The translations under genes were made by a program, and so were the position numbers. A model generated the notes under the pieces. It was not told the origin of the DNA. It did no database searches and saw only the letters and a program-made list of their open reading frames with translations. DNA of 40,103 bases from Jimgerdemannia flammicorona (lineage: Eukaryota), in NCBI GenBank assembly GCA_003990765.1, contig RBNJ01000127.1:1-40103 (forward strand). The letters are read 5' to 3'. The number at the start of each line of letters is the position of its first letter. The stretch's first letter is position 1. Below, in pieces: positions 12,501-39,452 of the stretch.

Positions 12501-12590
12501 AACATGTGGGATTCTCAAAGTAATTAGCAGTATGCGGTTTTCCTTTTTCTGTAGTCTTCGAGGCAGATATTTGATCCTTTTACTGCCAAA

Positions 12591-17185: not shown

Positions 17186-17495
17186 GGAGTATTTATAGGA
17201 GAGATATATATACCTGCTTACGTATTTTATAATTCCAGTCACATATAATAGAGGAATAGCAGTCTCACCCAATGAGTCTGGACAGATGAGTCACTGGCTT
17301 GCATAACTGCAGTCACATGATTACACAATCATAAGGAATCACAGTCCATATATAAGCCACTCTATATAATAGTCACGCTAAGTGCAAACAATGAAATTGC
17401 ACTACGATCATGTGACAGCGTCTAAGCCACAGAATACATCATTATCATAAATAGAGAAAATCATATTACCCTCATCTGAAATTTCTATTATCAAA

Positions 17496-17933
17496 ATGCT
17501 CAAGAGATATATGCAAAATACTCAGAACTGCTTCTGTAAACCTAGTATATACTAGGAGAAGGAAGATGAAAGCAATAGTGGAGAGGGTTCATTTATTCCT
17601 AAATATATTCAATTTAATAAGGTAAAATAATTACAGTCTTATTTGGTTCTTTATTATATTGGCTATTAGTAATACTTATATATTTTTATAGAGTTTACCA
17701 GTACTCACTAATGGCCATCCACCATCTTATGGTATTCTAAAGAAGTTAGAGAGGTTTAAGGCTGCTATTTCAAATAGCTTGCCCAATTACTCATTAACAA
17801 AGCTTTCTATGGAATATTGTATTCATTATATATAGTTTGACCTATATACTATCAACAATGCCCCATTATGCTATAGTAAAATAGAAACTCTGTTTGAGTA
17901 TAATGAAATATATTCAGATATTTATTTTTATAT
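17496..17933 (+). pseudogene. Degraded two-exon hypothetical gene
   Basis: ATG at 17496, GTAAAA donor ~17622, TATAG acceptor ~17691, mostly open frame with TAG stops; no family recognised. Confidence 0.3.
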
Positions 17934-17967
17934 AATGAATTGATCAAATGGTTAAGTATATAAATTT

Positions 17968-19760
17968 TCAACTTGGTACTTTTATTGGACTATAGAATAT
18001 TTGCCTGGTCATTCTCATCTTTTCCAATTTAGTCTGACCAGTATTAGTCTATATTGCAGACTGATACTGAATAGTACCATCATCAATGATATTCTAGAAT
18101 AGAGAGTTAAGATTAATAACCATGACTATTAACAGAATGATACATGCAAATAACAAAAATGCCTATATCAACCTGAATAGTTCTCAGTACTTGGTAGCAT
18201 CCTAGTATAGTACTCCATAATGTTGCCTCTTATGGAAACTCAAATTCCCCAATTATTATTATGTGATAAATTCCATCAAAATGAAGATCCATTATATATG
18301 CTCTTCCTAAAAAAACCTGGTAATAAATATTGTCAGTATCAATAATATCAATATATTGTTAATGAGATTTTCAAAGACCACTTACCAACTATATGTATAC
18401 CACAAATGATAAGATTTGGTACACCATCCTCAATTGACTTATCTATGGCATTTTTCATTACCTTGCCAAGACTAACTAGATCCTATTTAACTAATTTATT
18501 TTTTGCATTGGGTGGTTTTATCTCACCAACTAGCAGCTCAATATGTTTTTTATCATATACCATCCTAATGATGAAATCTGGCTTTGTGCCCCAGAGGGCT
18601 GGATCAAATCTCTTTTTTATCATTGATGATGATTTGGATGTACTATTTGCCCTTTTGAATCAATAGAATAGTGTTTATATTGTATTGGTACTACTATATC
18701 ATAGAGTATATTCTATATCTACCATTCAAATATAGTTCTCTTGTTTTTAAAGAATGGACTCAATACCGGTATGACAATAGAGTGAATATGAGTGTCTTCA
18801 ATATTATGGTTTTATATAAATGATGGCCACTCATTATTGACCCTTATATATTATGAGCAGTATGAGGAGTAAATATGTTAATTAAGTGAATATCATTACA
18901 TATAACTTAGCATACATACAGATTTTGAATAATCTCCATCATCACTTCACTATTGTTTGTAGTTTTTAAGCCTTGAAAGTAGTTGTGTATAGCAGCCTTT
19001 CATTTGGGATAATTTGGATTCTTACATACAATCTAAAAAATCATTATTAAATTAGACCAGAGTATATATGTTAAAAATAGAACTTTTTATACCCCCACCT
19101 TGATGGTATTGGCGAATATCTGAATGATATCATCTGAGATAGATATATATGGGTATAGTTTTCAAAATTCAATGAACAATGTACCCCAGAGCTCATCATC
19201 AAAATATCTATCCAGATCATATGGATTCTCTTTCTGAAAAATGAATACATAGCTTAAAGCTCTGTAAAAGAAATCAGGTGGCTGTATTATTCAATATTCA
19301 TTATAATTTTATATAGCAAAACAAATAAATGCAGATAACATATAGTTCTTTGAGAGCTGTCAGATGAGTCTGCATAGTCTCACACTTCTTGATGATTGCT
19401 ATTCAATATTTATAGCATTTACTAGAGATGTCATTTTTTCATATCATCCACTGGTTTTGAAAGATAGATGACAATATAAATATATATACTGGTCTGTTAT
19501 AACATATGGTGCAAAATATAACATCATTTACCCAAGAGAGACAATCATCCAGATTCTATTCAATAATGCCAGGACTGATGAAATAGTCTATACAACTATC
19601 ATTGCTTGCCTTAGAGATAGTTGCATCACTGTGAGGTGAAGAGGAGACATAGGATGAATTGGTAACTGTTGCTGCCCCTGGGCTGCTGTTTGGAATCATA
19701 TAGTCAACTCTCGATGAGTTATTTCTTAGCACCATAACACTTGAAGAATGTACCTATATA
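17968..19760 (-). pseudogene. Multi-exon PD-(D/E)XK restriction-endonuclease-fold protein (CR-REase/Crinkler C-terminal type)
   Basis: Exons give IEDTHIHSIVIPVLSPF, ANSTSKSS..GTKPDFII..IELLVGEIKPP..DLVSLGKVMKNAID..ICGIHIVG, AYIMDLHFDGIYHI..GEFEFP; PD and ExK catalytic motifs visible at ~18580-18520. Confidence 0.75.
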
Positions 19761-20469
19761 GATATATGCAGTTATTAATACTAGACCCTTTGCATAAATT
19801 AGAATGGTAATAATCTTACATCATTTCATTTAGAAATGATATCTAGCAGATAGCCAGATGTATCATCTTTCTGAGAGTAAATATCTGATATTTTAGAGTA
19901 TATAAAAGGAAATGTATAAAGCTATATCTGTTAAATAGGCTATTTGACTGAAAGGTATCAATAATAACTATGAATAGGCATGTCTTTTATTTTTCACTCA
20001 GTCATCATTCATATCATCCCATTTTTGCTTATGCCTTAGCATAGTTTCACATACCACTATCATACTAACAATCAACAATTGTTTACACAAATCCACCTCT
20101 TTACATATCAAATGTAGTGAATAGATCTTGCTATAGGAAATGAGCAAAGCTCTTCTACCTGTAGCCTCGGTACCCCTTGAACATTTTGATGGTGATAATG
20201 TAGCTGATATCATATAATCTATTTTGAACTAATATAATACATTTATATATATTCATAATACTTGTGGGTGAATTACAGATTTTCAAATATATATACTGGG
20301 AGTTAATGTTGTATCACATAATGCTTACTTCAATATATTTGATCTAATGGGTGGTATATTGAGGTCTGAACACCAAAAAAATATCTGTTAGATAATAGAT
20401 ATTGAAGGAAATGAATGTTATAGCAAATAATATACATTGAAATGGTGGTGGTGTGATATCTGGTGGGTT

Positions 20470-20828
20470 CATTTGCTGGTACGAGGGCATTCAATAATGA
20501 CATGGATGTGTCCATTATCAAGGAGTTCAGGAAAATACTTCTGGACCTTGTGGGCTACTGGCAGATTAACTCTCTTTAACACCATATCAATAGCAGCCAT
20601 TGGATCAGCTTCAAGTGTGGTCTACAGATCATTGGGGTTATCAAGTAGAATATCAACCATCTATAGTTTAAGATTTTTTGCTGTAATATAATCAAGTTCT
20701 GATGAACATTTTTCCTTGATGAGGTCCTTCAGTGTACTGAAACTTTTAGTCTTCCTAATCTCCACAGGAAAGTTTTGGCGTAATGGGCTGGGATCACTGT
20801 GGATAAGGTAGTTGAGAGTGATGGACAT
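20470..20828 (-). pseudogene. Crinkler (CRN) N-terminal ubiquitin-like header domain; possibly the 5' end of the REase gene downstream
   Basis: MSITLNYLIHSDPSP..NFPVEIRKTKSFSTLKDLIKEK..ITAKNLKL*MVDI..QKYFPE..GHIHVIIECP: CRN pattern with LxLWxV (W>stop) and HIHVIV. Confidence 0.85.
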
Positions 20829-21846
20829 ATCAAAAGCTGTATAAATGATCTAGTGAGACAATAGTGCTGGTAGCAGTGGATCCAAGATGTGGTATTATTA
20901 CTTATAGTTAGGTAGGCTCACTATTACAAGTAAGAGTAAGAGAGGAAAACAATGTGTATTATATTTTTAATTGAACAGTGGATCTAAGACCCTGGTAAAT
21001 GATGTTACACATTAGCTACCAAATTTTGCCTGTTTAGATACTAGCACAGCATACAGTAAAGACCATCCCTTAATCTATCATATATCTTGTAATGGTTCAG
21101 AAAAACTTTTCCAAGAATCTTACCATCAGGCAATTTATCCACCAGCATATTCATCATTCATAGACTATATGTGGGAATTGTTTTATTACCATCAAATAAA
21201 TTATCTGATATCTGATGCCATAATCTTGATCTAATCATAATTTTTACAGAATATATGCTGTATCTGGAATGAGGCATATTTGTATAAGATCTTTAATATA
21301 TATACTGGCCAATAAGGAATCCCCATATTCAACTGCATTCCTAGTACACATTCTTTACTATGATTATATGCAAAGGTGTTACAGCCCGAATTTTAGTGCC
21401 AATATTTTGTACGACCATTCTCAAAAAATGGTAGTACAGAATATTGATGCTTGAATCTGAGCAGAGCTCATACTATTTAAAAAACACCAACATGGCTAGT
21501 ACTCTCTGTATAATTCCTGAGAAAGTAATTTATTATATAGACCCATATTCAAATAAAAGTGTAGTCATAGTATGCTTTATACTCCAATCTACAATCTGGC
21601 TACCCAGAGACAGAATGACATCATTTATATATCCATAGATATTTGCAAATCTCAAATCTCATAATTCCACCCCTTAATGAAATTCTATAATATATAACAT
21701 GCTATCAAACTATATATATAACTTTGCTGGTATTGCTTTTTTGCAATAAACAATCCACTACATCAAGGATCCTACTAGACCACTAGTTATATACAACTTG
21801 GCTCTAGTATAGCAAACAATTTTCACATGTTATTACAGCTGGATCT

Positions 21847-23930
21847 CTACTCATCCATGACAACAGAGACCATTGACATGATCATGCTCTGCAGTAGCTG
21901 GCTCGCTGATACATATTTGGCCCTGATGCTGATAGTATATGTTTTACCAACTATGTTGCGAAATATATCATCATATACACTGAGTGTTTCAGTCTATAAA
22001 AGAGAAGGAGAATAAATTAACTTAAAAAAACTTGACAAACAATAAAATGATGAATATATATCAATATACTGCAAGATTGGCCAATTCATTGACACTCATC
22101 TTGAACAAAGATTTGCCAACCAACTCAAATGCCGTTGTATTCATCTGGTTGTCAGCTTCACCTATTATGATTTTAAGAAAGTATCTGAAAACAAACCTGT
22201 ATGTCAATATACACAAAAAAGAGGGGTGGCTGATTTATAGTCAATTTCAATTTTTTATACTTTGTATACATATATCTCACCAATATCATACCTATGTTCA
22301 AGACACTCTCTGCTGTCTTTAATTTTCTTTTTGCACATGCCACAAGATATATATGATATTTCACTATCATTGATACTGATCATGATAGCTTCCGACTTGA
22401 AGCAGATATCTTCATTTTTGTTGCTACAGGTCTTTTCAACTACATTCACCAATGTCATCAATGGGTACTCAACTGAATATACAAGGCTCTTGGGTATACC
22501 ATTTATCTTTACAGAGTCTTTGTGCTACCTGTGTAGCTCTTCACATTCCAGAAAGGCAGGATCCAGAAGTATATATGGATAGCTTGGCAACTATAGAGAT
22601 ATAACTGCATGTAGTGAATTAATAAATATCTCCATATCCAAAAGTCAATTCAAAATTGGAGTACTTGACTACACTTACATCCTTTATATTCCTGGATGGA
22701 TACCCCATAGAGCAAGGCTACATTTTCGACTGAGCCCTTGAATAACTCCACAGTGCTGCCCCATAAAGTGACCACAATCTTTCCATCAGTATTGGCGATG
22801 GTGAACTTCTGTTACACCCACTTATTCCCATTCTTTGTACCATATATAGCATTTTCATCACATTGAATGATAACCCCAATGACATCTGGAGAAACAAAAA
22901 GGATGTCAATCATCTCTGAATTTGCTAAAAAAAATCCCAACACTTCATATTATCATACTCACTTAGATCCTTCTGACCAGTATATAGGTCAGATAATAGT
23001 GTAAGATCAAGCAACAGTTCTGCTGACTTCTCCTCAGATTTTTCAATAACTGTGTCTGAGTTGATGGTGTATTCCTGTGGTTTGCCTGGGATTGTGGTGA
23101 TTTTGAGACCATTGATGCTATAGTGCTGTCCAGCTACAATATGTCTAAGCTTCGATACATTATCACCAAAGACCTTGATTGAAATTGGACAGCTCTGCAG
23201 AATAATGAAATATGTGAATACAAGTACCTGTGAAATACAGTCACTCTGTTGAGTGTCATCATTATCTCCACCTTTTTAACAGAGCACCAAGCTTCAGCAT
23301 ATTCCTTCTCCTTGTTAGCCCACTTTAACTTTGTCAGTTTTATTAACAATATAAAGGCAGTATTGAAGGCAGCAACCCTGGGTGTCACTGCAACTGAGGA
23401 GTGGCCAGCAATAAACATCTTGTTAGGGCATTGATCAGAAGTAATCTGCTCAGTACAGGTATGCTTACAGATGATCTCTTTAAACTCTACTGGATTCCTG
23501 ATCATTTTTGGAGGGGTGGATGTGATTCTATATGTCTGTATGTCCATATGTCTGGGGCAGTATATTGAAACAAATAAAATCTCCTCTTTATAATGAAATC
23601 TGCATCCAAGTCTATAATACTCAATCAGTAGAATGACCATCCTACTTAAATTTTATGACAGAGATGATTGAAAACATCTTCAGTGTCTGAGGGGTATTTG
23701 GAATAACAGCTGTTACCAAAATAATAGATTAGACTGACTTTACTACTGGTTACTGACAAGGGGTCCCTGTTCCCAAACATGCCTGATATCTAATGCTCTC
23801 TATCAGAAATATGCAGCTCATATCCATGTCCTTTAGGCATAACTTTGGTTATCTGCAGGTTGGGCTTGTAAGTAGTTATATGGTCTGGAGAACTATAGTT
23901 TGCAATAAAGTTAATTGACAGGGTCACCAT
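21847..23930 (-). pseudogene. RPA1: RPA1/RPA70-like ssDNA-binding protein, paralog 1 (intron-containing; N, A, B, C OB folds)
   Basis: N: MVTLS..KPNLQITKV..YELHISDREH; A: ISIKVFGDNVSKL..GQHYSINGLK..EYTINSDTVIE; B: DVIGVII..TKNG..FTIANTDGKIVVTLWG..GVSIQEYKG; C: ISYISCGMCKKKI, TTAFELVGKSLFKMSVNEL, GKTYTISIRAK. Confidence 0.85.
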
Positions 23931-24137
23931 TGTAGATATAGGTGTGGAGCAGTATAATAAGATAATTGCATATCTTTTATATTTAGCTCTTCATATATTG
24001 AATCAGATGCAGATAGCCATCCTGATACAGAAAGTACAGAACACATGACATTGCTGGGCCAGACAGGTTTTCTCATGTAATTGTCCATGATGCATTGATC
24101 TGTCTTGAACCCACTAAACCACAATAAGCATGCCTAC

Positions 24138-25267
24138 TATTCAATGGATTCAAATCTCCACACAGACCTCTACACTGCCTTCTGCTATATTATTTCCTTT
24201 TCAATATATTTTTATTCTTTGTCTATGGTTGCAAGTGAATTATCAACCTCTTCAAAGAATGCTTTAATCAATTAAACTATTCTCTATTGAAAGCCTGATT
24301 TTGGCTTCACTATAATGAAATGAATATCTACAAGCTTATATGGCATAATCCCTACATATCTATAACTGCCCAAACCATGCTATAGAGGATACTGTATGAT
24401 CATACTATCCCTAAGACTAATGCTGGCCAGAGATATAGTATAGGTCCTTTCCCTCTCACTTATCACAGCCAATGTAAAATCAATAGACTTAATTTCTACA
24501 GTACCAAAGTCCACCAAGAGGCTATTGTGTTGGTCCTCTGGGCCAACCTTCTTAAATACATTTAGTATTCCCCATACTCTAGGCCATGCTGCCTGTATTG
24601 CTGCACTATCACCAGAGTGAAATGATATATTGTACTCAGATATATTACTAAGATCATCCACCTTATACAGCTGAAAAACTATATTAATGAAGATATATCA
24701 CTACGCAAGCCCTTCAGTAGCAACCAGTCCACCCCATATTTGTGGCTCATACTTTCGGGGAACTGCACCATCTGGTTCACATGTTATGGGGCACTTGATC
24801 TCAAAGAGATTACATTCAGCAGAGACTCTAGTCTGTCAGCTATTTTGCATAGCTGTCATCTACAATGCATCATTGGCAGTATGCTATACCACACCAATGC
24901 CATCAGGTGAGTATCTGAACTGATCCACATCTAGAATATCCACTATGCAGATCTCATAACAGTATATCCAGTACCCCAGCTGCAGCTCAGCAAATGCAAT
25001 AGTGACTGACTCGAATGCTGTCCCAAATCCACATGCTGCACTTCTGAATGACTTGCCCTGACCAAGCAGCCTTTCCATAAAGTTCTCCATGAATTTGACA
25101 AAAGAATCATATCAGTTCAAACCCCACATAGTTCCAAGGTCTGAACTACTGATGGTGATATTTAGAAGCTTGTACCATCTTGGATCATGCTGTTTGATGG
25201 CACTATATCAGTGCTGGAACTCTTCAACTGATCTCACCAGCTCTCTTATATTTGTAATGGCTGACAT
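24138..25267 (-). pseudogene. YqaJ/lambda-exonuclease family nuclease, asfarvirus D345L-like; intronless, single frame with in-frame stops
   Basis: KQHDPRWY..TISSSDLGTMWGLN*YDS, SAACGFGTAFE, RYSPDG, LFEIKCP, VPRKYEPQIWGGL, FINIVFQLY, PRVWGI, VDFGT, VGIMPYKL; 3' end approximate. Confidence 0.85.
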
Positions 25268-25354
25268 ATTATCCAAAATAATACTAAAGGAGTTATGGAA
25301 TACCTTTATAGTGATTGAAGACGAACCTAATATTCAGGATGGTGTCTGAGTTAT

Positions 25355-26348
25355 AGTATCTACAATTGTCACTGATATAATTGTATATTCTACATCTATA
25401 ATATTACAGTATGAGCTGTGCATATGATATGATAATAGTGATCAGTGATAGATTTAAACAATATACTGTACTGATCTTCATCCAGATGCATCCAATCATC
25501 TGCTGAGACCTCTAATAATGTAACAGCAGCCTTCTCAAATACTATTACAGTAACCATTATCTATGCAAATATGTAGTACATATTGAAGAGATGGACTAGA
25601 ACACACAACATCACATTTGTTATACATCCACTATCCAACATATTCTGTGAGCTGTCTATTGCACAGGCTGTATGCATTATATGTAATATTCTCTTATTCG
25701 ATAATAGTGATATAGCCTGCGATAGTACTATAGTAGAGCTCATCCAGTGGAATCTCCATATCCAGAAGAGTTCACAGTGTTGAGATTGCCATAACTCTCT
25801 GATAATCAGTCTTGTCATAGCTCTGCATAGTCCACTATAGCTACAGAGCATTACTCTCAGTATTGTCAAGATTCTGTCCAACACAGTTGATATCAGTATA
25901 TGTCAGAGTATACTGAGCACAGAATACCTTTGGTAGTATATTACTAATCACTAGGATATCACCTGTTGCAACTGTCAGATCAATGGCCTGCTGCCCCCAG
26001 AATATAACTGAAACAATACAACCATCTCTACCAACTACCTCAAGTGAACATCAACTTGTGGTACCACCTCTAACATCTGTAGTGACCAGCTCACCACTAT
26101 CTATCACCACACAAAGGATGTCAACAGATGTCTTTCCACAAATATCATCTAATAGTATATAGGAATATACTATCTCTAGATAGTCATCAGGCCCACATGT
26201 TATTATGATTGCAGCATCTCTCATATCCAGAAATTAGTACTTTGGCACATGCTGTAGCCTGGTACCAGTGATGTAGCAACTGCACTCTGATACTAGCTCT
26301 CTAAATACTGCATTACTATTATTTCACTGATATGTATTTTTATAATAT
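25355..26348 (-). pseudogene. RPA1: RPA1-like paralog 2, 3' part (OB folds A-end, B, C), separated from its 5' part by the Ngaro insertion
   Basis: VDILCVVIDSGELVT..GGTTS*CSLEVVGRDGCIVSVIFWGQQA, NLDNTESNAL*L*W, ITYNAYSLCNRQLTE..G*WMYNKC (eroded Zn finger), QYVLHICI, VFEKAAVTLLEVSADD. Confidence 0.8.
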
Positions 26349-26648
26349 ATATAGTTATGAATGCAATTCAAACTTCAGCAAAGTGGCCGAGAGCTGCTTA
26401 ACATTATGTGGAACAATCATGCAATTTCCCCTTGGCAGACTTAGTTTAGCTCATTTCATGCAGTTTTTGTCCCTTTCTATGCCAAAGATAACTTAGCTAG
26501 TGGTGTTTTGAAAAATACGCCAACCATTAATGCAAGTTAGTAACAATGTAATCGGTCCAGCGACTGAGTATTCGTTGCATCTCAGCTAGTCAGGCATATA
26601 TTACGCCAAGTTGCAATTAGTCGCTAGTATTTACAATCAGTTCACATA
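26349..26648 (+). repeat. Ngaro repeat A1
   Basis: atatagttatgaatg.aattcaaacttcagcaaagtggccgagagc ... tttacaatcagttc duplicated at 30825-31125. Confidence 0.95.
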
Positions 26649-26659
26649 TCACATTCACA

Positions 26660-27978
26660 ATGCCCCCAATTCACACTCGGTCTCATGGTTCTTTGGAACC
26701 AGCTATAGCCCCAAGACCAGTTGCCCCCCTAGCCCCCTTACATGAACCTCACCCCTCCCCCATTCCTAATCTATCTGGCCTATGCACTTGTTGCAAAGAA
26801 CAGCTAGTCGCACTGTGTCACGAACATCATCTGCCAGTCGAAGGTCAAAAAGCTGCACTAGTTACGCATCTCAACTTGTACCATCCAAGTCCCAACCCTC
26901 CACCTCAGCTGATTATTGGAGAGCAAGCTGAAGATGCCCTTATTGAATGCTTAATCCCCACTTTAGTTGGGCGCCTTGCAACACATCCATCCATCATACC
27001 GATGGGCCCCAACTTAATTACTCTGCCAGTATCAGGGCTACCGGTGGGCTTGTCACAGGTAATTCCTCTACCGGCCACTACTCCTCTCTCAGCTATGGCC
27101 CCCTTCATGCCGCCACCTCCCATGACAAGGTTGATGTCACAATCGCTGCCAATCTGCAAAGTGGTGAGTCTTCCTTGTCTCTCATTTCAGATGCTGTGCT
27201 TCGACGGAATTGGGTACCGCCTGACTTGCTGGCATCACTAGATGCGGGCGACTATCAGATTCTATCCGAATGGACCGGCAGTGCTCTTATTTCGCGATCA
27301 AGCAGCTGCAAAAAAGCAGATATACACATGCCTGACTGCGACCTAGATCTACCACTGTGGCTCAAAGCCATCTTTAACATCCGAGGTGCTCTACTGGCTC
27401 TGGGTACCACCCGATCGACCTTGCTTGCATCCCATGCTCCTCAACTTCTTACCCATGCAATCTTTATCGTTAAAGCGATAAATGATCATTATGACTGGGT
27501 GGCACTTCAACGCTTTGACTGTCAAGTTCGTACACTCAAGGTCTCCTTCCCTGACTTGGACATCAGCAATCCAGACATGGTTTGCCATACATTCGAGACA
27601 ATTGTCGGCCAACCTTCCTCAGCACCCTTAGTATACCAATGTCACTCTACATTCTCCTATGCTGGATCTCATGCAGTGGGAAGTTCATCAACTGCCCACC
27701 CAGCTGGTGGCCCAAAACCGGTCTCATCCACCAACCTCTTGTGCTTTCGATGTGGGGTGTGGGGACATGCCATCAGCTCCTACACCCAAACCCCACTCCA
27801 GCGTCCTACTTTCCCATCCAAGCCAGACGATCCTATCTACCCAGATGGTGCAGCAAGCTCGGTCTGTCATAACTTTAACAGCTCTGGTTGCTCCTATCGA
27901 AACTGTGGTCAAGTGCACATATGCCTCTTCTGCTATAGACCTCACACAGCCCCGGCTTGCTCTGCTCGCCATGGCTAA
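26660..27978 (+). pseudogene. Ngaro ORF1 (gag-like) with SAP-like motif, CCHC knuckle and C-terminal Cys/His finger; frameshifted
   Basis: KEQLVALCHEHHLPVEGQKAALVTHL; CFRCGVWGHAISS; CHNFNSSGCSYRNCGQVHICLFCYRPHTAPAC; split between ORFs 26660..27241 and 26947..27978. Confidence 0.85.
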
Positions 27979-29713
27979 TCTCTTGATTCCCCCCACTTCT
28001 AGTCACCCAACCACCCTGTACCATATTAAGGAGTGGAAAAGGGTACTGCGTTCGCATCCAAACCAATCACTCGTTCAGTACCACCTAACAGGTCTCTACC
28101 ACGATTATCAGCACGGAAATCACTCTCACCCTGAGCTTCGCATCAACCTCATATCCGACAACCTTACCTCCACTTACCAGCACCAAGAAGTTCTCTCCAC
28201 CAACATTCTCACTGAGCTAGCTGCGGGTGGCTATCTTGGCCCATTTTCGTCTCTCTCCTCCATACTACCAGAATTCCGCCCCTTTTGCAATGCACCCCTT
28301 GGTGCCATTCCTAAAAAGCACTCGTCCAAATTTCATACTATACAACATCTATCCTTTCCCTACGGGAGTTCAGTCAATGACAGAATCAATCCTGAGGAGT
28401 TCTCAATCCAGTACCAGTCTATTCAAGCCGTCATTCTCCTTCTCCTCTCAGTCAGCTCTACTGCGCTCTTCTGGAAGGCCGATGTGGCTGATGCCTTCCG
28501 CACCATCCCAGTACACCGCTCCGATTGGGCTATGCAGGATATCTGCTGGCTTGGTCTTTTCTTCCTCGACATGTTCCTCCCCTTTGGTCTTTGCTCTGCT
28601 CCCTTTATCTTCATATCTCTCATGGACCTCTTTACCTGGATCTGTATTTAACTATACATTCTTCCTAACTTGGGCCATTTCATTGATGACTTTATTTACG
28701 TCGCACCTCCGTCCAGCACATTCTCCTCCTATAATCAATTTCATGCTACCGCATCTCGATTCGGCCTCCCACTCAAACCCTCCAAAGATATTCCTCCTAC
28801 TCCAACTATAGAGTATGTTGGCTTCATTCTCGACGCTCCGACAATGACGATTAGTCTCCCAATGGAGAAACGCACATGTATTCTCACCTTACTAGCATCA
28901 TGGCTTACACCGGCTCAGCAGACTCAATCATACCATCTATGTCCACATTCACACCATGAAGCTCAATCACTCTCGGGCCATCTTATGCACATTGTTCAAA
29001 TACTTCCAGATGGGAAGGTGTTTTGCGACAGCATCATTCACTTTGCTTCCTCTTGGAAACTGCCCTATGCGGGGCAGCGTTTTCCACCTCCTTGACTAGC
29101 CACTGACTTACAGTGGTGGTATGATATTCTACACTCATGGCCAGATCATCGCCTGCTCTGCCATTCCAAGTGGCTCGATTGTAGTCTGTTTACAGATGTA
29201 TCTGGGACACTTGGTGCCAGTGGCCTGCTGGGCCAACGCTGGTGGAGTACTCGTTGGGCTCCCTCCTTCTTAGATCTGAATGGCTATGACATATTCTGGA
29301 AAGAAATGTTTGCCATTTGGGTCTCATTGGTGCTCTGGGGCCCCTTGTTTTGTTCTCAACGTATTATTCTCTAGTGTGATAGCCAGCCCTGTGTCAAATC
29401 ATTGACCAGTGGTCGGGCATGCCATCATCCTCTTGTCAATGACTTACTTCATCGTATCATTCTCTTACATCTCGAAATCGGATTCGAAATTCAAGCTCGT
29501 TACATCCCTTCAGCATCTAACCCTGTAGACCCCTTATCTCGCCATATACTTCCTCCATATCCCCAGGACCCATTGCCTACATTAATCACATCCCTCTTTG
29601 GCTTCGCCATCAATTCGACACCTGCCTCTACCAACGCACCCACACTCGAACGGGTAACTTCTGGTCAGGCACCAATTCTCTACACTGATTTCTCAACTCC
29701 TGCAATATCGTAG
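27971..29713 (+). pseudogene. Ngaro ORF2 reverse transcriptase + RNase H (in-frame stops)
   Basis: PLGAIPKK..HLSFP.GSSVND, KADVADAFR, LPFGLCSAPFIF, HFIDDF, IEYVGF; RNase H FTDVSG, IFWKEMFA, CDSQ, YIPSASNPVDPLSR. Confidence 0.92.
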
Positions 29714-30636
29714 AGACTGCTGCTTTCTCTCTTCAAGATGAATTACTCAGTTATTGGGCTCTTTGGCTTGTCCAAGATGGCAAGCCCTACTCCACCATCA
29801 AGAACTACTTTGATGATCTCACAGCCTATCAGATCACTCACTGATATGGTCCTCCACTCCAGCACCTTTCTCTACCCCTCTTCAACATCATTATGAAGTC
29901 TATTCAGACTCACCCACCACCTTCCAGTTCACTTGACCAGCTTTCTATTATGTGCCAACACCTCTGGTCTATCTGTCTCTCTCTCCACATAGACACTCCT
30001 TTTGGTGCTACTATTTGGGCAGTGGCGTGCTCTGCTTTTTATGGCTTAATGCGTGTTGGTGAATTTACTACTCAAGATGGCTCCATATTCAATCCGAATT
30101 GGCAAATTTGTCATCACCATCTTCATTGCCAACAGGATGACACCCTTTCTTGACCATTCTGGGCTCTACATCTTCCCCGAACAAAAATAGGCAGAGCAGG
30201 CGACGTCTTCCTTGGCTTCTCTGGTGCCTTCGATTGCCCGTGCACTGCAATTGACAACATGGTCCATATTCACCCAGCACAACCTCATGACCCCACCTTC
30301 TGCCTTGGCCTGGGCCAACCACTTTCTTGATCTACATTCATTGAAACGATTCGATCTTCGCTCACAGGCACCTCTCTAGCTGTCGGTATTTATGGTCACT
30401 CCTTTCGAATTGGTGGTGCCACGCTTCTGGTAGCTGGGGGCTATCCTGATCATGTCATTCAACTTACTGGTCGATGGAAATCCACCGTATTTCTCTGCTA
30501 CATTCGACACCTTGACCACATTCTCCCCAAAACCATGGCAACACTAGTAGGACTCTCTCTACCTGATCTTCAGCAGGCCATGGGTTTGGCCGGTAATGGC
30601 CGAATTTTGCCCATAAGTGGTTTATGGCACCATTAG
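29560..30636 (+). pseudogene. Ngaro ORF3 tyrosine recombinase (in-frame stops; start approximate)
   Basis: AFYGLMRVGEFT, LHLPRTK, GHSFRIGGAT, IQLTGRWKSTVFLCYIR (R-K-HxxR-W-Y set). Confidence 0.92.
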
Positions 30637-30669
30637 GAGCCTAAAACCACTTCCCAGGCCCACAGTTTT

Positions 30670-31322
30670 GGCCCCCTTCGCTAATGCGAATGGCGGGCCT
30701 TGGAGGCATATGCTTCCATATAGCCAAACCTACCCCACTTCATCCCCTATACACATTCTACATTTTACGCTTCATAATCCCCCCTTTTCTACTTCGTTGA
30801 ATTGGTCACTCGATAGACACTTTGATATAGTTATGAATGTAATTCAAACTTCAGCAAAGTGGCCGAGAGCTGCTTAACATTATGCGGAACAATCATGCAA
30901 TTTCCCCTTGGCGGACTTAGTTTAGCTCATTTCATGCAGTTTCTTGTCCCTTTCTATGCCAAAGATAACTTAGCTAGTGGTGTTTTGAAAAATATGCCAA
31001 CCATTAATACGAGTTAGTAACAATGTAATTGGTCCAACGACTGAGTATTCATCGCATCTCAGCTAGTCAGGCGTATACTATGCCAAGTTGCAATTAGTCG
31101 CTAGTATTTACAATCAGTTCGTGTAACTCTCCCACCCATCCCCTTTTAGTAGTATATAATAAAAGAAGGCCCCCTTCACTAATGCGAATGGCGGGCCTTG
31201 GAGGCATATGCTTCCATATAGCCAAATCTACCCCGCTTCATCCCCTATACACATTCTATATTTTATGCTTCATAATTCCCCCTTTTCTACTTTGTTGAAT
31301 TGGTCACTTGATAGATACTTTG
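30670..31322 (+). repeat. Ngaro 3' repeats B1 (30670-30824), A2 (30825-31125), 42-bp spacer, B2 (31168-31322)
   Basis: ggcccccttc.ctaatgcgaatggcgggcc...gataga.actttg present twice, flanking A2. Confidence 0.95.
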
Positions 31323-32606
31323 CCTATCATTATAGAGACAGTTAGGAAAGCCATTACAGGTGTTTAGCATAATACTATCTACTGAATACTCACCCCACTC
31401 TGATCACAGACCGTTAGACTGAACTTCTCATTCATAATACTAGTTTGGCTTATAACTAGCACATGAACTGTAATACCAGATGTATGTGGTATTAACTTGC
31501 TGATAGAGGTGATTTTGGAGAATGATATTACCTTCTGGTGCTTGACCTTTGTCATTATATTATCCTAGAGACTACTTTGGAGACCTGGGAGCTTCACCCA
31601 TCACTATTTTGTTGAATTCTCGAATCACAAGGTGGCTGTTATATATATAAAATACTGATTATGCTTATATATAATACAATTACAAAGGCCAACACATATA
31701 GGATATATATGTAGATTCACACTTAGTCTTATACTCATAATCACTGATGCAAATAATTGTGAATTCCTCTATATCAATAGAATTCATAGATATTGCTATA
31801 TACAAAAATCTCATATTAGTCACCAAAATACCACTGCAGTCTTTATCTACAAGTCAGGCATACATATCCAGCATAGTTTGGTCACCATCAGAGATAATGC
31901 ATATTGTTTCAGTAAGGACTAGAACCTGGTCCCTATAGCTTGACACATCATCCACTGAAACCTATTCAACCTTAAGTACCTGTAGAATAATATTGTTGGA
32001 TAGAGTGAACTGCTCCTTTCCAATGCCTGCAACAAAACCTTTAGTGAGAGCAGGTGGGATAGAGAAGGTAGAAGAGATATTTGTGAGAGGCAGAGTCTCA
32101 GTACTGATACTAAGAGGTGCTGACTCATCTTGAACAAAGACTGACTGACTTGTTAATCCTCTTAGCTGGAGTTCAGATTACAGTGAATTCAAGAATTAAA
32201 CAGAAACTACAGTTTTTCATGAACAGTAGAATATTGTTAATTCTAGTGTCAAAAAATGTCAGAACAGTAGAAATGGCATACATACACATGGCCATCAATC
32301 ACCAAAGGTTCAAATTCATCAATACAAATAACTGAATTCAAGGCAACTCCATCTAGAATAGTATAAGTTGTTGCATGTATATAATGCATACCATCCGAGA
32401 TAACCAGACTATGGAAGTTATATGACACTTGTAAATAGACATCATGGTATATAATTTTGAACAAAAAAACTGAAAATATAATAGAAGACTCACATTGGCA
32501 GCTATATTTTTAATATCTGTACAATAGGTGTCAATACTACACTCAAATTATGATATAGAATATATACTGAAGAATTATCAAGTGGAGAATCAGAAGCAGA
32601 AACCAT
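31323..32606 (-). pseudogene. RPA1: RPA1-like paralog 2, 5' part (two tandem RPA70N-like OB domains and start of DBD-A), intron-containing
   Basis: ATG 32606: LTPIVQILKI|..HSLVISDGMHYIHA..LNSVICIDEF; second copy ALTKGFV..IILQVLKVE..CIISDGDQTML..FTIICISDY; then ITSISKLIPHTSGITVHVLV..FSLTVCDQSG|GTGAGT..CTAAC..GATAG. Confidence 0.75.
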
Positions 32607-32714
32607 AATATAAAGAAAAGACCAACCAGATTGAAAAAGAAAGAAAGAGATAGTATATATATCAAATTGTGACTGTGAGTGACTATATTAAGTACTGAAT
32701 GGATCTTAGCAATC

Positions 32715-32954
32715 GATTATATTAGTATAATTAATAGTATATAGGAGCAAACACATCTTTTGCTCAAAAACCTCCTAAGTGACTTCGAATTTTTTATCTG
32801 GCCAATGAAATCACATTTAGCATAACCCTTTTCATTGAAAGGATTACACTAAATGACAGCTCATTAGCTGGGCAAAAAATTTGAAGTCACTTAGGAGGTT
32901 TTTGAGCAAAAGATGTGTTTGCTCCTATATACTATTAACTATACTAATATAACC
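32715..32954. repeat. Long inverted repeat (~94-bp arms, ~52-bp loop); MITE or hairpin
   Basis: ttatattagtata.ttaatagtatataggagcaaacacatcttttgctcaaaaacctcctaagtgacttc.aattttt is the reverse complement of 32861-32954. Confidence 0.9.
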
Positions 32955-33149
32955 TATTCTCTTTGATCATTCTAGGAGAATTGTCAGATATATATTCTAT
33001 AATTTGTTGAACCCCAATATATATAAAGTATCTCCCAAACTATACCTGCTTTCATTTTATTTATAAAATATTACAATAGCTGATGATTTTAAAATCTCTT
33101 ACATTCTAGCTGCAACTATAGGTAAGCTTGACTGATTTTTACTAGAGCA

Positions 33150-34728
33150 AAGATATGGCAACAATCTGAGTATGGAGCAGAATAATATATTATATGCTGT
33201 AGTAGACAATGGTCAGAATATATTCTGTATAGGCTCTGCAGGTAAACTATATTTCTTGTCTGAGTTTGTTTGGGATCATATAATATATTATATACAAAGC
33301 TGATATACTCTTTATCAGGGACAGGGAAAACATGGCTACTCCTGTGAATGATTGCTCTTCTCGCAGAGAAGCATGATGAAGAGAATATTGCTATAACTGT
33401 AACAACTGGTATAGCAGCCTCCCATATCAATGGTCAAATGATCCACAGCTTTACAGAGATTAGCAATGGTGCAAAAAGTGTAGAAGAGCTTATATCCAGC
33501 ATAATGAAAAATGCTACAGTGCAAGATCAATGGAAGACTGCTGTAGTGCTTATTATTGATGAGATATCAATATTGAGTCATAAGCTATTTCAAAAGCTTG
33601 AGAAAATTGTGTGAAATATTTGTGGAAGAGATGTACCATAGAGTGGTCTCAAAATTATCATTATGGGTGATTTCTATCAACTCCCCCCTGTTGTGGTTGA
33701 ACAAGATTCCAGAGGAATATATGCTTTCCAGGCTATATTATGGGCAGCATCTATTCACCTAACATTTGTTCTCAAAGAGGTATATAGGCAAAGGGATCCT
33801 GGTATATATGTATTTCTATTGGCCATTCTAGTATTTATTGAGTCTCTTGTTAATAGCTATCTTTGTAGACTTTATCCAGATATTAAATAAATTGCATGTT
33901 GGCCAAGTGACCAAAAAAACAGAGGATATAATGAAGTCTTTGAAACATCCACTAGCCCTTCCTGACCAAAGAATCATTCTGGTATCACTATAAGTATCTC
34001 ATTTTCTTATAGTCCTTCTTTGAATCTATCTGAGATTTAGGACTCTTTACCTTAATGAAATTTGCTTTGTCTAGCTTTCCAATCCATAAGAAGGTATAAG
34101 AAATAAATTGTCATCAGCTCTAAAAGTTGATGGGCAAAGCCCATCGCTATGTTGCAATTGACAGTGGAGATATAACAATGGTTGAGAAGCTGTGTTTGTT
34201 TCCTCAGATATTAGACTTAAAGGTGGGTGCATGGGTAATCCTGCTGAAAAATATGATAGAAAACCTGGTAAATAGCAGTGCAGGAATCATCGAGAGTTTT
34301 GTCAAGGACCAGAGTGAGAGCATATCATACCCCAAAGTATGGTTTGACAATGGAATAATCCAAACAATCTGGCCAGAAGTATGGAAAAATGAAGACAGGT
34401 ATATATAAAAATTATTGTTTTTGTCATCTGTTTTGTTTACAAAACTCTGACTGATAAACTACTCTCAAACACATCAGATGGACTAATCCTGGCCAGATAT
34501 GTACAGCTGTCACTAGATCTGACATGGACATTATCAATACATAAATCACAAGGAATGACCATTGAATATATTGTAATTGATTATATACAGATATTTGCAG
34601 CTGGGCAGTTATATATAGGTATATCTTGTACAAAGTCTCCCAATGGATTGCAGGTACTGAACTTCAGTCATACAAAATGTATTGTAGATACTACTGTCAC
34701 AGCCTTCTATAAAAGATTGAACAGCTGA
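33150..34728 (+). pseudogene. PIF1: PIF1/RRM3-family 5'-3' DNA helicase (intron-containing, core only)
   Basis: LSMEQ..QNIFCIGSAG|TGKT, ITVTTGIAASHINGQMIHSF, LIIDEISIL, GDFYQLPPV, LKEVYRQRD, LKVGAWVILLKN..LVNSSAGII, IHKSQGMT, FAAGQLYIGIS, GLQVLNF..VTAFY. Confidence 0.93.
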
Positions 34729-34734
34729 TTTGAT

Positions 34735-36235
34735 TTATTTATCAGCTTTAAAGTATATCTCATAAATTCTTGCACTTATTCCTACTATAACCTTTGGTCC
34801 CATTGCATTGTGTATCATTATCTGTTGTTTGTCATCACCATTTAAAATGCTATATACTGCAAACAGATTGCTGGATATATGGTAATATGTAGCTATCTCC
34901 TGTGTCTTGGTAAATGAAACCCCCTGCACAGTTGTGAGCATTGCTATAAAGATATGCTGGAGATGGCAGCATTGGACTTGTTGTTCAGTGTACAGTATGC
35001 CTGATAGATAATAAAGTATGGTGTTGTGAGATATTTCTGGAGTGCAAGATATGTAGCTCAGTTGATATATTCATCTGAGATGTCATTCAGTTGCTGGATC
35101 TCTATCTTCTTCAGCTCATTGTGCATGGTAAGATAGATAATGGTGTAATCAGTGCTGGATATATACTTGACAAAGAAGCCATCTCTGATATATGTGGTGG
35201 AGATTGCCGATATTATTGCCTGTGGATTGAATGCATTGACCACTACAGAATCGTATTCCTCAATAATATACACAACCTGGTCTGCACCAGAGCACCTTAG
35301 TCATACCTTCTGCTCTACAAAGCATCCATCCTTCATGCTGGTCACCAGATCATCCATGTGCTTCCATTCAATGATCCAGTTTAGCACCAGCTCCATCTTG
35401 TCACTATGCCGACATGTGACCCATACAATGTCTCCAAGCTCCAGTGCATGTACCTCTACCTCAATATGATGTTTCTGCAATTGTGCACAGATGTAGTCAT
35501 GGTTGGCGATGGACCTAATCTCACAGGAATCGAGAATGAGCACCACATCAAAGGTACCAGGGTAGAATATAGTGGGTGTGATAGATGGAAATGATGGTTT
35601 GTCTTCCTCTCCTACTTTTGTCCTTTCTGCTACTTGGAGTGGTCTGGACAGGTGATGTGCCAGTAGTGCTCCAGCATCTGTCAGAAAATACTTAGCTGGA
35701 TTGCTATCCTTATTAATCAATCTCTTTATCACCAAGGTATTTAGTTCTGACAATGTAGCTCTATCGCAATATGGCTGTGCAAGAGGTTTGAGGTCCTTCC
35801 TGGCAATGTGGACATCAGCAGCATGCAGGGCCATGAGAATGACATATGGACTACTACGTAGCCTGGGGGTGTAGGAATGGGGTATGCTACCAGTGGTAGG
35901 TGAATTGGAGTTGTATTTATTGTGTTCTGATAGCTATTTAATTAGCTTGCTGACTATCTGTAGACCAATACCCTTTAGATGGCATGCATCTTGTGGTGAT
36001 GTGAAGGGAATCAGATAGTGTAGAATGGCATTGTAGGCCTGTAGAGTTTGAAGAATATCAGCTCTAAAGATTATATTAAAAATAATAACATCTTTGCAGC
36101 ATGGGTAATGACCTTTTGATATGAATAATATACCTTAGATCCAGTGGCCTGTACTTTATACATGTGCTCTGCAAGACATGCCAGATAGAGTGGGTTTGCA
36201 CAGGATGCATGTTTTGATTTTGATATTGATGGCAT
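34735..36235 (-). pseudogene. MUS81: MUS81 structure-specific endonuclease (HhH, winged helix, ERCC4, HhH2)
   Basis: SCANPLYL..YQK|AY..HLKGIG; YTPRLRSSPYVILMAL; VVLILDSCEIRS, LELGDIVWV, IIEWKHMDDLVTSMKDGCFVEQK (canonical ERK..DDL..SIKDGRF.EQK), VYIIEE, MLTTVQGVS. Confidence 0.92.
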
Positions 36236-36915
36236 GCTGATTATTGTACAAGAGTCTGGCCACTACAACTATTTAAATACTGTAAGTATCCTCACTATAT
36301 CTGTACCCAATATGTATCCATATTTCTGCCACCCCTTAGAGTCTATTACCTGTCCCCCTTGCAATCAACTGCACACTCTAAAGAGTGGCTATACAAGTGG
36401 CAATGTTCAGAGCTACCCTATACTTTACATAATACTAAAGACAAAATATACATTTAATAGCTCTGAATCCATTATAATCAACCCATATACACAAGCCCAT
36501 ATTACAATTAAAACTACTGTCAGCATTCCAGACAATCACTATGAATGTATTATATCACTCCTGGGTTACCACCACACATTGAGATGAGAACTACAACTAT
36601 CTGCTTGGGATATACAGGTGTACTGGGCTTGGAAATATATAATAACCATACTACTCTATATATCATTGACATAGGGGTTGTTCTCTGTGAGCTTGTCACT
36701 AAGCGTATATATAGTAAGGTTATATTTCCCTTTTCTCATCTTTCTTTAATTACATGATATATCTATCTCACTCACTAATATAGTCTATAAGACAGAGGCC
36801 CATCAAGTCACAAAGGCAACTACACAGAATGCCACCTATCTTAAAGCTCTGCTAGAAGCAGTATATATCCCATCTACTATATTTATTTGATCACCAATAA
36901 AATCAAAAGGTACTA

Positions 36916-37347
36916 CTATTTATTTACATATGGCATCTCACTACGAATGTAGTAGGCAAGAATTATATCCTTTGTTACAAGTGTAATACATTTGGCATGG
37001 ATTGTAGCCAGGTAAGAATCTTCAAAAAGCTCAATAATATATGTCTCCACTGTCTCCTACAATATACCAAAAGCAGAGGTCTGGATACAGAGCCCCATCT
37101 TGATGTCTTCTAGTACCTTGTAAACCAAGCATATAAAGGGAGCCTTTTTTATGAGCAGTTCTGTAGATCTTTGGTATTTTTGGATCTCTCGAAAGGCAAC
37201 TATCCCAGAATGATAACAATGGGGTCTCTTGATTCTGCCTCTTACAAGGATTATTTCACATGGAGCTAGGATCATTTTGTGTAGAGCTGGGACCATTTTG
37301 TATGGTATCTTATTATGCTTCTGAGGGTTGGGTTGCTTTTGACACAT
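36916..37347 (-). pseudogene. H3: Divergent intronless histone H3
   Basis: KRPHCYHSGIVAFREIQKYQRSTELLIKKAPFICLV..IQTSAFGIL*ETVETYIIELFEDSYLATIHAKCITLVTKDIILAYYIRSE covers the whole H3 fold; N-tail non-canonical. Confidence 0.92.
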
Positions 37348-38016
37348 TTGTAATCATTTTTGGAGTGTGATATAATGTGTGGGATAGATAGATACTTCTT
37401 GACAGTTTAAATAGCATTTGGCTGGCTAGTATCATGCTGTGTTCTCTATTCATATGATAGTATACAGGTGATCTCCATTTCTAAGTATTTATTAATTCAC
37501 AGCTAGTATCATATAGAGGAGTGCATAGTTGTGATTTTTATAACAGCAGCCATCAAACTGGATACAATATATATCTTTTATCAGAATATGTATGGTCAGG
37601 TATGAAATAATATATTACTTTATATGTCTTTGTATTTTCTGTACATTGATTCTTACCAGCTATTGTTTATATGTTATTAATGTGCCATGGTCTGTAGGAT
37701 CCATTTCTCCAGCAACTACTGTAATGCATTCTACCAGAGAGGTTGTAGTATATGTACAATCAACCTAGTCCTTGGAGGGAACAAGTGGCATATTTTCAGC
37801 AAACTATGTAGATACTTTCAAATGCTGGTTCAATATATGTGTGCAACACAGTCCAGTTATTTTCCACAGGTGTCTGGATATGCAGAATATATCTATAAGT
37901 TTGTTTTCCATATCCAGATTTGAAAATATAATGAAATATATACTATTTACTGTCATTTCAAATTAGTTGGCCATATCTTTCACACTGTGGATATTTCAAT
38001 TTCTTCACTCTGGACA

Positions 38017-39345
38017 TTTTTTTTTTTATAGTCACTTAGACTCTGCCATTTATTACCAGTCTATTAATAAGTTTACAGTATATCCTCCCACTACCTGATC
38101 CCCATAGAGGGGCTACTCCCCACACCTTTATGAACAAAGACCACTCTCTCACCTGCAACTCCAATCCTCCCCCCACTCTGCTCACAGATTTTCTCCACTA
38201 ACTAATGCCTTTGACCACTCTGCAACTCCCAACCAAGCCACCAGCCTGTCAAGATGTCTTCCATAAGGCTACACTACCACAACAGCCAGATCTCTAAGCC
38301 TAGTCTCCTCCCATCCTCAAAAACAAATAACCAGTGACTTGTCAGCTCCACCCAAATGACCAAAGCCCAGCCTAATGTAAGTCATTCCTTCCCCACCCCC
38401 CCCCACCAATCTATCCCTCAAATTCTTCTACTGCCCCCGCATGCCAACTCCCCTACACTCTATCTCCAAATGATCTCCAACAGTCTGCCAAAAGGCACTA
38501 AGTACCTTACACTCTCCTAGCCAATGTTCAGGTGTCTACACATATCCCCCTTCTTGCTCTACATTATAATACTCTTTACAGTCAAAGCAACCCCCCTCAA
38601 TAAGGTGACCTGAGTGGAAGTTGAGCATGACATTCTGCCTCAGCATGCACCACCAGGCCACCCAGTACTTTGGCGGTATCCATCTCCTCACCTCAGCACT
38701 CCAGGCCCAAATGCTATGCCAGTCCCACTCCTCACTAATTCCAACTCCTTGCCAACTGCTAGGCCACAGATCCTGGCCTGGTCCCCATTGGCATTCTATC
38801 CCATCACTAATATCAAACTCAATTAAGGAAATGCCTCCCAGCAACACTCAGTCCCATCTCCACATTACCGGGTCCCAAGCCACCTCCCCTTCATTTCCCT
38901 GCCACCAAATTCCAATGCAGTGCACCCCCTCTGCCACCCTCCACCAGAAGCCTTTGTATTACAATTGTTCAGTATTCTGAAGGCCAACAAATGCTAGGAG
39001 ATCGCCAGTCAAACCTCTCAGTGAGGACCTCATCTCCCAGATTTTCTGCAATAGGGGGACCCAATCTCTCCCTCTCAACTCCACTACTCTCTTCAGCCAC
39101 CATGCTCTCAAGCAGTGCAGCCTCTTAGAAAAGTCAACCAGCCTAAGTCCACCACTTGCCACCAGTAAGGACAAGATCTCTCAGCTGATCTAACTCCATA
39201 TTCCAGCCCAGATCCACCCCTTGGCCAGCTTCATCAATCACTTCACCACCCAAGCTGGGAAGTCCAAATGATAAGTCATATACCACAACTTCAGCAGCCA
39301 ATAGATGTTCAGAATCAAAACATGCCCTGCTAGAGACAATTGGTG
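38017..39345 (-). mobile_element. 5'-truncated L1/Tx1-like LINE (post-RT region, CCHC finger, 3' UTR, poly(A))
   Basis: QLSLAGHVLILN..KLWY..WIWAG..GGLRLVDF..CLRAWWL; CFDC..TPEHWLGEC..FW; AATAAA then poly(A) (poly-T at 38017-38028 on +). Confidence 0.8.
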
Positions 39346-39452
39346 CAGGGGGGGGCCCCCCTAGGGGAATTGGATAGGGGTTGGGATCATTGTAATTATA
39401 TAGACTAGTTCGGTAATAAAGGGCAGTCCAAGAGACTATAAAAAAAAAAAAA
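39346..39452 (+). mobile_element. Short 3' stub of a related LINE ending in poly(A)
   Basis: ggtaataaagggcagtccaagagactataaaaaaaaaaaaa resembles the minus-strand LINE end ggtaataaatggcagagtctaagtgactataaaaaaaaaaaa. Confidence 0.55.

Follow-up and report, generated by a model that had tools for sequence, protein, structure and literature searches.

A CpG-eroded histone H3 relic with three tandem K27-type heptads in its tail in Jimgerdemannia flammicorona

If the tail of a histone H3 gene carries a tandem array and the gene itself is dead, was the array made while the gene was still open or only afterwards? This question is raised by an H3-like coding relic on the minus strand (36919..37347) of a stretch of 40,103 nucleotides from Jimgerdemannia flammicorona (contig RBNJ01000127.1), which was analysed as a whole and is called the window in the following. 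Three tandem 21-nt units occupy 37305-37243 on the same strand, just before a stretch that is translated as G-R-I-K-R-P-H, and we read them in frame and exactly as an initial annotation of the window had quoted them. That annotation took the gene for an element-encoded H3 variant whose tail had been rebuilt from a unit resembling the K27 motif, and proposed that such a histone, lacking K9, could resist or decoy heterochromatin writers. We consider it probable, if with little to spare, that the relic lies in old silenced repeated DNA as the dead remnant of a divergent H3-like gene, and that its tail was remodelled in frame before silencing.

The relic comprises 143 codons from the ATG to the last sense codon, with one in-frame stop, no frameshift and no intron. 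Its translation matched the Pfam family Histone (PF00125) with E=7e-23 (81.6 bits, cutoff 26.4). Against solved H3 chains the best E was 5e-30, in an alignment that is gapless across query residues 38-139, and the best 60 solved chains listed were all H3 or H3 variants. The relic is an H3-family sequence, as had been recognised before, and has a fold of ordinary length. The top chain was mouse H3mm18, a variant which itself carries Arg>Cys-type changes (HCY and LC in the alignment), and its rank probably reflects common CpG-type substitutions rather than kinship. Read by eye, the stretches 'A-F-G-I-L' and 'E-T-V-E' are nearer to the fungal-type H3 P0024 than to the animal-type matches.

In order to see how far the fold has decayed we compared 104 positions of the αN helix and the fold, codon by codon, with four reference H3 proteins from the searches, all of which come from organisms other than the host. 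At 55 positions the relic is identical to the references. A further 27 differences are explained by C>T/G>A alone, including the in-frame stop, a TAG in codon 97 (37057..37059, minus strand) at a conserved Gln (CAG>TAG); 5 positions require another transition and 17 a transversion. Few arginines survived: 12 of the 14 reference Arg positions were changed (to Cys, His, Tyr, Gln, Lys or Met) and only R53 and R135 were kept. At the 3' end the canonical stop position reads Tyr, and the frame runs through a C-terminal extension of four residues to a terminal TAA (36916..36918, minus strand), which is followed by TAG. Given the TAG at codon 97 and the 12 changed Arg positions, this copy is a dead gene, a pseudogene, and in its present state it does nothing.

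The three units differ mainly by transitions. Unit 1 (U1, 37285..37305) reads CCA TAC AAA ATG GTC CCA GCT (P Y K M V P A), unit 2 (U2, 37264..37284) reads CTA CAC AAA ATG ATC CTA GCT (L H K M I L A) and unit 3 (U3, 37243..37263) reads CCA TGT GAA ATA ATC CTT GTA (P C E I I L V), all on the minus strand. Directly after U3 follow AGA GGC AGA ATC AAG AGA CCC CAT (R-G-R-I-K-R-P-H). U1 and U2 share 17 of 21 bases, all four differences are transitions, and the two units agree at 21 of 21 positions when the bases are collapsed to purines and pyrimidines. For U1 and U3 we counted 12 of 21 identical bases, 7 transitions among the 9 differences and 19 of 21 collapsed matches, and the same values were found for U2 and U3. 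At a lag of 21 the array gives 40 collapsed matches out of 42 (41 at a nearby offset) and 29 base matches out of 42, and among 40,041 window positions it is the sole cluster at either of these lag-21 values. We simulated 300 first-order Markov sequences, each 40,103 bases long; their maxima averaged 33.06 and rose no higher than 36, so that none came to 40. As the array is unique in the window and was not matched in any simulation, it is real and not a product of chance. Other loci in the window with at least 95.2% collapsed identity at periods of 7-60 were restricted to periods 7-9 (9, 6 and 2 loci), most of which resemble simple-sequence runs by eye, and to one locus at period 20 (7909-7933). 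Tandem Repeats Finder at a minimum score of 30 returned 0 rows at the array because transitions drove the base identity of the units below its threshold.

How much of the tail is made of these units depends on the alignment with the canonical tail. We therefore aligned the tail globally with a score that rewards identities as well as codons explained by C>T/G>A, and obtained the same colinear result for gap penalties from 2 to 8. The first 14 codons (37306..37347, minus strand; M C Q K Q P N P Q K H N K I) are an eroded N-terminal tail corresponding to canonical M-A1..A15, with three small in-frame gaps near A1, T6/A7 and G12-G13. The alignment reads M-(A1 lost)-C(R2)-Q-K4-Q5, then P-Q(R8)-K9, then N(G13)-K14-I(A15)-P16-Y(R17)-K18, where the first three codons of U1 stand against P16-R17-K18. 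After K18 there are extra residues, then the K27 motif and G-G-V-K-K-P-H. K27 is aligned with Lys (U1, U2) or Glu (U3), and the region of K23 is replaced. Only at a gap penalty of 10 was the N-terminal part aligned otherwise, yet K9 still paired with K9. MAFFT offered an alternative with one 11-residue deletion, T3-G13. The whole tail scored 26.5, compared to 13.25 +/- 3.29 when stretches of 36 codons were drawn at random from the eroded block around it, and 2 of 1000 such stretches reached 26.5. Taken alone the first 13 codons after the ATG are weak, as their score was reached by 102 of 2000 codon shuffles and by 63 of 2000 random stretches. We also considered an upstream exon with a canonical tail and rejected it: the alternatives scored 21.5 (gap-riddled) and 13 against 26.5 for the tail in place.

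Two claims about the tail have to be adjusted in the light of this alignment. The absence of the A-R-K-S context of K9 is not established, because the better-scoring erosion-aware alignment keeps K9 (R8>Q-K9). The view that the tail was rebuilt from the unit fits 21 of the 39 residues before K-R-P-H (36 in the reference, so that the tail is 3 residues longer) and does not fit the first 14 codons, which this alignment sets in line with canonical residues 1-15. By contrast the likeness of the unit to the K27 motif is supported by position, since U3 lies exactly at canonical A25-A31 relative to G-G-V-K-K-P-H. The interval from K18 to T32 measures 18 residues against 13 in canonical H3 (net +5). 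The second halves of U1 (ATG GTC CCA GCT) and U2 (ATG ATC CTA GCT) are of the S/T-A-P-A type and not Q-L-A-T, and for this reason a replacement of P16-A31 by three heptads of the type P-R-K-S/T-A-P-A is the simplest account, with a balance of ~9 residues lost and 14 gained. Overall the relic resembles canonical or H3.3-type H3 in its gapless fold and, on the erosion-aware alignment, in a colinear tail in which K4, K9, K14, K18 and the G-G-V-K-K-P-H junction can be recognised. It departs from canonical H3 in the three K27-type heptads, which take the place of Q19-A31, the small tail gaps, 22 fold differences beyond erosion, the TAG and the four-residue C-terminal extension.

The erosion that was suspected from the start is borne out and is concentrated at CpG. 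The coding sequence of the H3 relic has an observed/expected (o/e) ratio for CpG of 0.13, compared to 0.97 for positions 1-16000 of the window. It is one of three relics, together with those of a Mus81-like and a Pif1-like gene, in a CpG-depleted AT-rich block (31323..38000) with a CpG o/e of 0.08, a TpG+CpA value of 1.32 and a GC content of 0.357. TpA is not enriched in this block (o/e ~1.0), and the pattern is therefore one of CpG-centred deamination, as for methylated repeats, rather than that of Neurospora-type repeat-induced point mutation. The H3 relic has been eroded by CpG-centred C>T/G>A mutation, and the cause is likely to be cytosine methylation of repeats.

Reversing this erosion gives an ancestral unit that is not unique. 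If C or G is taken wherever the units disagree by a transition, the unit becomes CCA CGC [G/A]AA A[T/C]G G[T/C]C CCA GCT, which would encode P-R-(K/E)-(T/M)-(A/V)-P-A. At unit position 7, which is preceded by C, U3 has G and both U1 and U2 have A. These are the two expected outcomes of one CpG, and hence Glu is as much allowed as Lys. At positions 11 and 14 all three units have T, so that Thr and Ala can only be guessed at; the Met and the Val could be the original residues, or could be older than the duplications. The consensus P-R-K-T-x-P-A that had been proposed for the unit is one of the permitted reconstructions among others, with Glu at position 7 and Met and Val at positions 11 and 14 as the points at which it may differ.

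We then considered whether this DNA is repeated. The Mus81-like relic (34735..36235, minus strand; HhH, winged helix and ERCC4, Pfam ERCC4 5.1e-20) has the same orientation as the H3 relic and follows it downstream at a distance of 680 bp. An intron of 74 nt with GT-AG borders (36112-36039) is retained in it, and it has at least one in-frame stop as well as a 1-nt deletion at 34963-34964. A comparison of its open reading frame (ORF) with the ESM Atlas gave MUS81 clusters with scores of 0.76-0.81 (best 0.81), which we treat as a lead only. The Pif1-like helicase relic (33306..34728, plus strand; PIF1 1.2e-26, Pif1_2B 7.9e-4, UvrD_C_2 0.0095) is convergent with the Mus81-like gene, contains in-frame stops and has its domains spread over three frames.

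The Mus81-like ORF is 78-84% identical to three J. flammicorona proteins (P0151, P0152 and P0153), which are encoded on contigs of 1468, 39591 and 1688 bases, respectively; one of the three is annotated as crossover junction endonuclease MUS81. These proteins carry Arg>His/Cys-type changes of their own, and the differences between the copies are mostly of the C>T type and occur in both directions. Against P0151 we compared 205 positions and found 157 the same, 31 forward changes, 5 reverse changes and 12 transversions. Against P0152 (194 positions) there were 159 the same, 20 forward, 10 reverse, 3 other transitions and 2 transversions. The gene model of P0153 runs from Mus81 into the antisense of the 3' end of Pif1, which is the arrangement seen in the window. 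Because three differently eroded relatives exist and the arrangement recurs in P0153, the Mus81/Pif1 segment is repeated DNA in that lineage. A Mus81-like DNA-repair nuclease thus appears to have been amplified as repeated DNA in the J. flammicorona lineage, and the three gene models may be pseudogenes annotated as genes. For the J. flammicorona genome as a whole a review (PMC10386755) gives a size of ~240 Mb with more than 77% repeats. Together, the low CpG o/e and the multi-copy Mus81-like/Pif1-like segment support a location of the H3 gene in silenced, repeated DNA.

Within the old eroded block there is a retroelement (26349-31322) with split terminal repeats (26349-26643 = 30825-31120, 95%; 30670-30824 = 31168-31322, 94%). 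It has weak Pfam matches to RVT_1 (0.013), a hepadnavirus-type RNase H (0.097) and Phage_integrase (0.0014), and the order of these matches makes it DIRS-like. With a CpG o/e of 0.52 it is less eroded than its surroundings and is a younger insertion. Between this retroelement and the Pif1-like relic we found a palindrome of 240 bp without a spacer (32715-32954), which may be a foldback element or similar to a miniature inverted-repeat transposable element. Its arms are 85% identical, or 96.7% when collapsed, and it must therefore have been near-perfect at first, before transitions made the arms drift. On the other side of the H3 relic, positions 38001-39400 have a C-rich plus strand (GC skew ~-0.34), a CpG o/e of 0.06 and proline-rich ORFs without a Pfam match; a further old element probably borders the H3 block here. 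On the far side of the retroelement a second, equally CpG-depleted stretch (16-26.3 kb) carries further relics on its minus strand (16094-25732, o/e 0.09). These are two RPA-type OB folds (Rep_fac-A_C at 25732-25560, 1.8e-6; REPA_OB_2 at 22886-22668, 1.6e-5), the N-terminal domain of a Crinkler effector (20822-20490, 1.9e-12) and an Ulp1-type protease (Peptidase_C48 at 16378-16094, 0.0023). Positions 1-16000 look like repeated DNA free of CpG erosion. They contain diverged internal repeats (6795-7439 = 4314-4964, 79%; 8916-9373 = 5903-5518 inverted, 77%; 2150-2624 = 623-1084, 72%), and their long ORFs match no Pfam family except for a weak SAM domain at 79-513(-).

On the reading that we prefer, a divergent gene remodelled before it was silenced, the order of events would be as follows. 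P16-A31 would have been replaced in frame by three tandem seven-codon units, most likely because A-P-R-K18 and A-A-R-K27, which resemble each other, paired unequally or let replication slip from one to the other, with a subsequent re-duplication, and the N-terminal landmarks K4, K9 and K14 would have stayed in place. CpG-centred erosion has since destroyed nearly all Arg codons, turned the Gln codon into TAG and split the units by transitions. The length changes of the tail relative to canonical H3 are all in frame, with at least 3 gaps in 117 nt against none in the 312-nt fold. The Mus81-like relic (1.5 kb) shows ~2-5 gap openings against its copies, one of which is a 1-nt frameshift. Transversions account for 17 of 49 differences in the H3 fold, compared to 2 of 35 and 12 of 48 between the Mus81 copies, and this higher share suggests that the fold diverged before erosion set in. 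U3 differs from the other units at 9 of 21 sites, more than the arms of the palindrome differ from each other, and the array should thus be no younger than a good part of the erosion. We favour, on small numbers, a remodelling of the array in a gene that was still kept open.

We searched for other copies of this H3 at the protein and the contig level. A word-indexed protein search gave 5 candidates of near length, none with E<=1e-5, and 91 candidates of longer lengths, none with E<=1e-3. An exhaustive HMMER search of 1.84 billion representatives returned 9786 matches at E<=0.001. The best 150 of these were ordinary or fused H3s with 40-54% identity, and the heptad array was found in none of the 12 inspected among these best 150; in such a set of representatives any relative closer than 50% to canonical H3 would be hidden inside its cluster. 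The matches that aligned with the tail, three unnamed proteins and one axolotl H3-like protein, were uninformative. A degenerate purine/pyrimidine pattern of the array had one hit among metagenome contigs (L001). We rejected it because it is an AT-rich tandem repeat of 21 nt that is unrelated and lacks any histone context. Within the window a self-comparison, plain as well as purine/pyrimidine-collapsed, turned up neither a further H3 copy nor terminal repeats that flank the block. Pfam searches of 31323-33322 (+) and 37348-38549 (-) with E up to 5 gave no Rep, H4 or transposase.

Several of these results weigh against the reading we prefer. A further copy of the H3 relic turned up neither in the window nor in the protein and metagenome-contig searches, and therefore H3 may lie outside the repeated unit and the array may never have been part of a living gene. 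We found neither transposon termini nor a transposase or Rep domain around it. U1 and U2 differ at only 4 of 21 sites and have T in common with U3 at positions 11 and 14, so that at least the last duplication may have taken place during erosion, in a pseudogene. That 429 nt contain no frameshift is only slightly surprising, given how often indels occur in the neighbouring gene. Finally, some of the 22 fold differences that erosion does not explain could be specific to the host, as the references are not the host's own.

The closest precedent for such a gene is found in another fungus. According to the part of Manning et al. (2013, PMC3538342) that concerns these genes, the H3-like genes (H3L) of Pyrenophora tritici-repentis were transduplicated by a hAT transposon. 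They have N-terminal tail insertions and changed histone-fold helices, are neither bona fide H3 nor CenH3, and occur as 26 nearly identical copies, mostly intact and transcribed, between hAT terminal repeats; the same part mentions extra H3 copies in a rust fungus that are not transposon-linked. What the relic shares with H3L as described there is an extra H3-family gene, tied to repeated or mobile fungal DNA, with insertions in its tail and changes in the helices of its fold, which is neither bona fide H3 nor CenH3. H3L is a family of many copies in an ascomycete, whereas here we have one heavily eroded dead copy in a lineage of the Mucoromycota (Endogonales), with Mus81-like and Pif1-like neighbours, and found neither termini nor a transposase. 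A tandem heptad array is not described for H3L in the part of PMC3538342 cited above, and no literature search was aimed at tandem heptads in H3 tails. We favour a repeat-borne H3-like gene comparable to H3L, whose living ancestor may have been carried by a mobile element or may have been a duplicate that drifted.

It is possible, though rather unlikely in our view, that the relic is an ordinary host H3 pseudogene, for instance from a segmental duplicate of an H3/Mus81/Pif1 neighbourhood, and that the array arose by neutral slippage after death with no functional history. This copy is plainly dead, we found no termini of a mobile element, and Pif1, Mus81 and H3 are all ordinary host genes, with an intron kept in the Mus81-like relic as in a genomic copy. 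The closeness of U1 and U2, which are only four transitions apart, and the T at positions 11 and 14 of all units fit the duplication of an already eroded template. On the other hand the length changes of the tail are all multiples of three and are confined to the tail, and U3 is as diverged as independent erosion from the start would give. About one in three of the differences in the fold calls for a transversion, a higher share than among the Mus81 copies, and at least three more versions of the Mus81-like neighbour exist, each eroded in a different way, which is too many for a single segmental duplicate. A processed pseudogene in particular is unlikely. There is no A-run in ~200 bases after the stop of the relic, which is informative because A-runs would survive C>T/G>A erosion, and this together with the intron kept by the neighbouring gene speaks against a retroposition of the relic.

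A bolder version of the repeat-borne reading seems improbable to us. On this view the window would preserve, in fossil form, a histone that a transposon encoded and whose modification motif had been amplified. The genomes of the Endogonales might harbour a repeated multi-gene element, possibly Helitron-derived, with chromatin and repair genes of its own, namely an H3-like histone with three heptads, a Mus81-like nuclease and a Pif1-like helicase. Intact, expressed copies of this H3 might still be present, or might once have been, and could serve to mark or shield the chromatin of the element. Helitrons have 5'-TC and 3'-CTRR termini with a subterminal hairpin and insert at A/T (A|T). The typical RepHel protein is an HUH Rep fused to a Pif1-like helicase, and we obtained no Helitron_like_N or Rep match upstream (E up to 5) or elsewhere in 16-40 kb (E up to 0.01), where erosion may hide a Rep. 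In the portion of Li et al. (2024, PMC11417382) that covers captured genes, Pif1, RPA and Peptidase_C48 are among the recurrent domains of Helitron-like elements, and the eroded blocks of the window hold a Pif1-like helicase as well as REPA_OB_2, Rep_fac-A_C and Peptidase_C48 relics. The RPA and Ulp1 relics, however, lie 7-17 kb away, across the younger retroelement. The list of captured domains in that portion has neither a Histone domain nor ERCC4, and in one supplement file 'histone' appears once (in a PHD description) and 'ERCC4' never. We regard a Helitron derivation of the block as a lead and not as a finding.

The idea with which the initial annotation ended is more doubtful still. It holds that a mobile element encodes its own H3 variant, that multiplied R-K-T motifs and a missing K9 resist or titrate heterochromatin writers, and that the window contains a decayed member of a family that is functional now or was so once. 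A K27-type heptad has indeed been triplicated in frame, another fungus has an H3L that is carried by a transposon and has insertions in its tail (PMC3538342, in the part cited above), and the Pif1-like, RPA-like and Ulp1-like relics correspond to domains that recur in Helitron-like elements in the cited portion of PMC11417382. Against this K9 is probably not missing, and the Lys of the unit is insecure, as Glu is equally allowed by the same reverse-erosion logic. The H3 copy itself bears the full signature of silencing (CpG o/e 0.13) and so did not resist. Our searches found no intact or additional H3 copy and no Rep or transposase, and neither a Histone domain nor ERCC4 is among the captured domains in that portion of the Helitron survey. 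The earlier inference was half right, and nothing supports the decoy idea.

CenH3/CENP-A has a longer loop 1 than H3 and a tail that cannot be aligned to that of H3. That the relic is the host's centromeric H3 or what is left of it is highly improbable: it does have an H3-family fold with a divergent, non-canonical N-terminal tail that is 3 residues longer than the canonical one, but a fold that is gapless against canonical H3 over 102-104 positions, with no insertion or other length change in loop 1, contradicts this, its tail can be aligned to the canonical tail at a level reached by 2 of 1000 controls, and the gene is a CpG-eroded pseudogene with a stop in eroded repeat DNA.

The locus is a fossil and a modest curiosity. 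As it stands its main value lies in being a clean example of how CpG-driven erosion hides a tandem repeat from standard repeat finders, and in the lead that it gives for Endogonales assemblies. If living copies exist, they would offer a natural tail variant for testing writers and readers on multiplied A/P-R-K-S/T motifs. Repeat-borne H3 copies are rare, and the best-described case is a single transposon family of an ascomycete. A second case, in a fungal lineage that diverged early and is very rich in repeats, would suggest more than one uptake of histones by mobile or amplified DNA.

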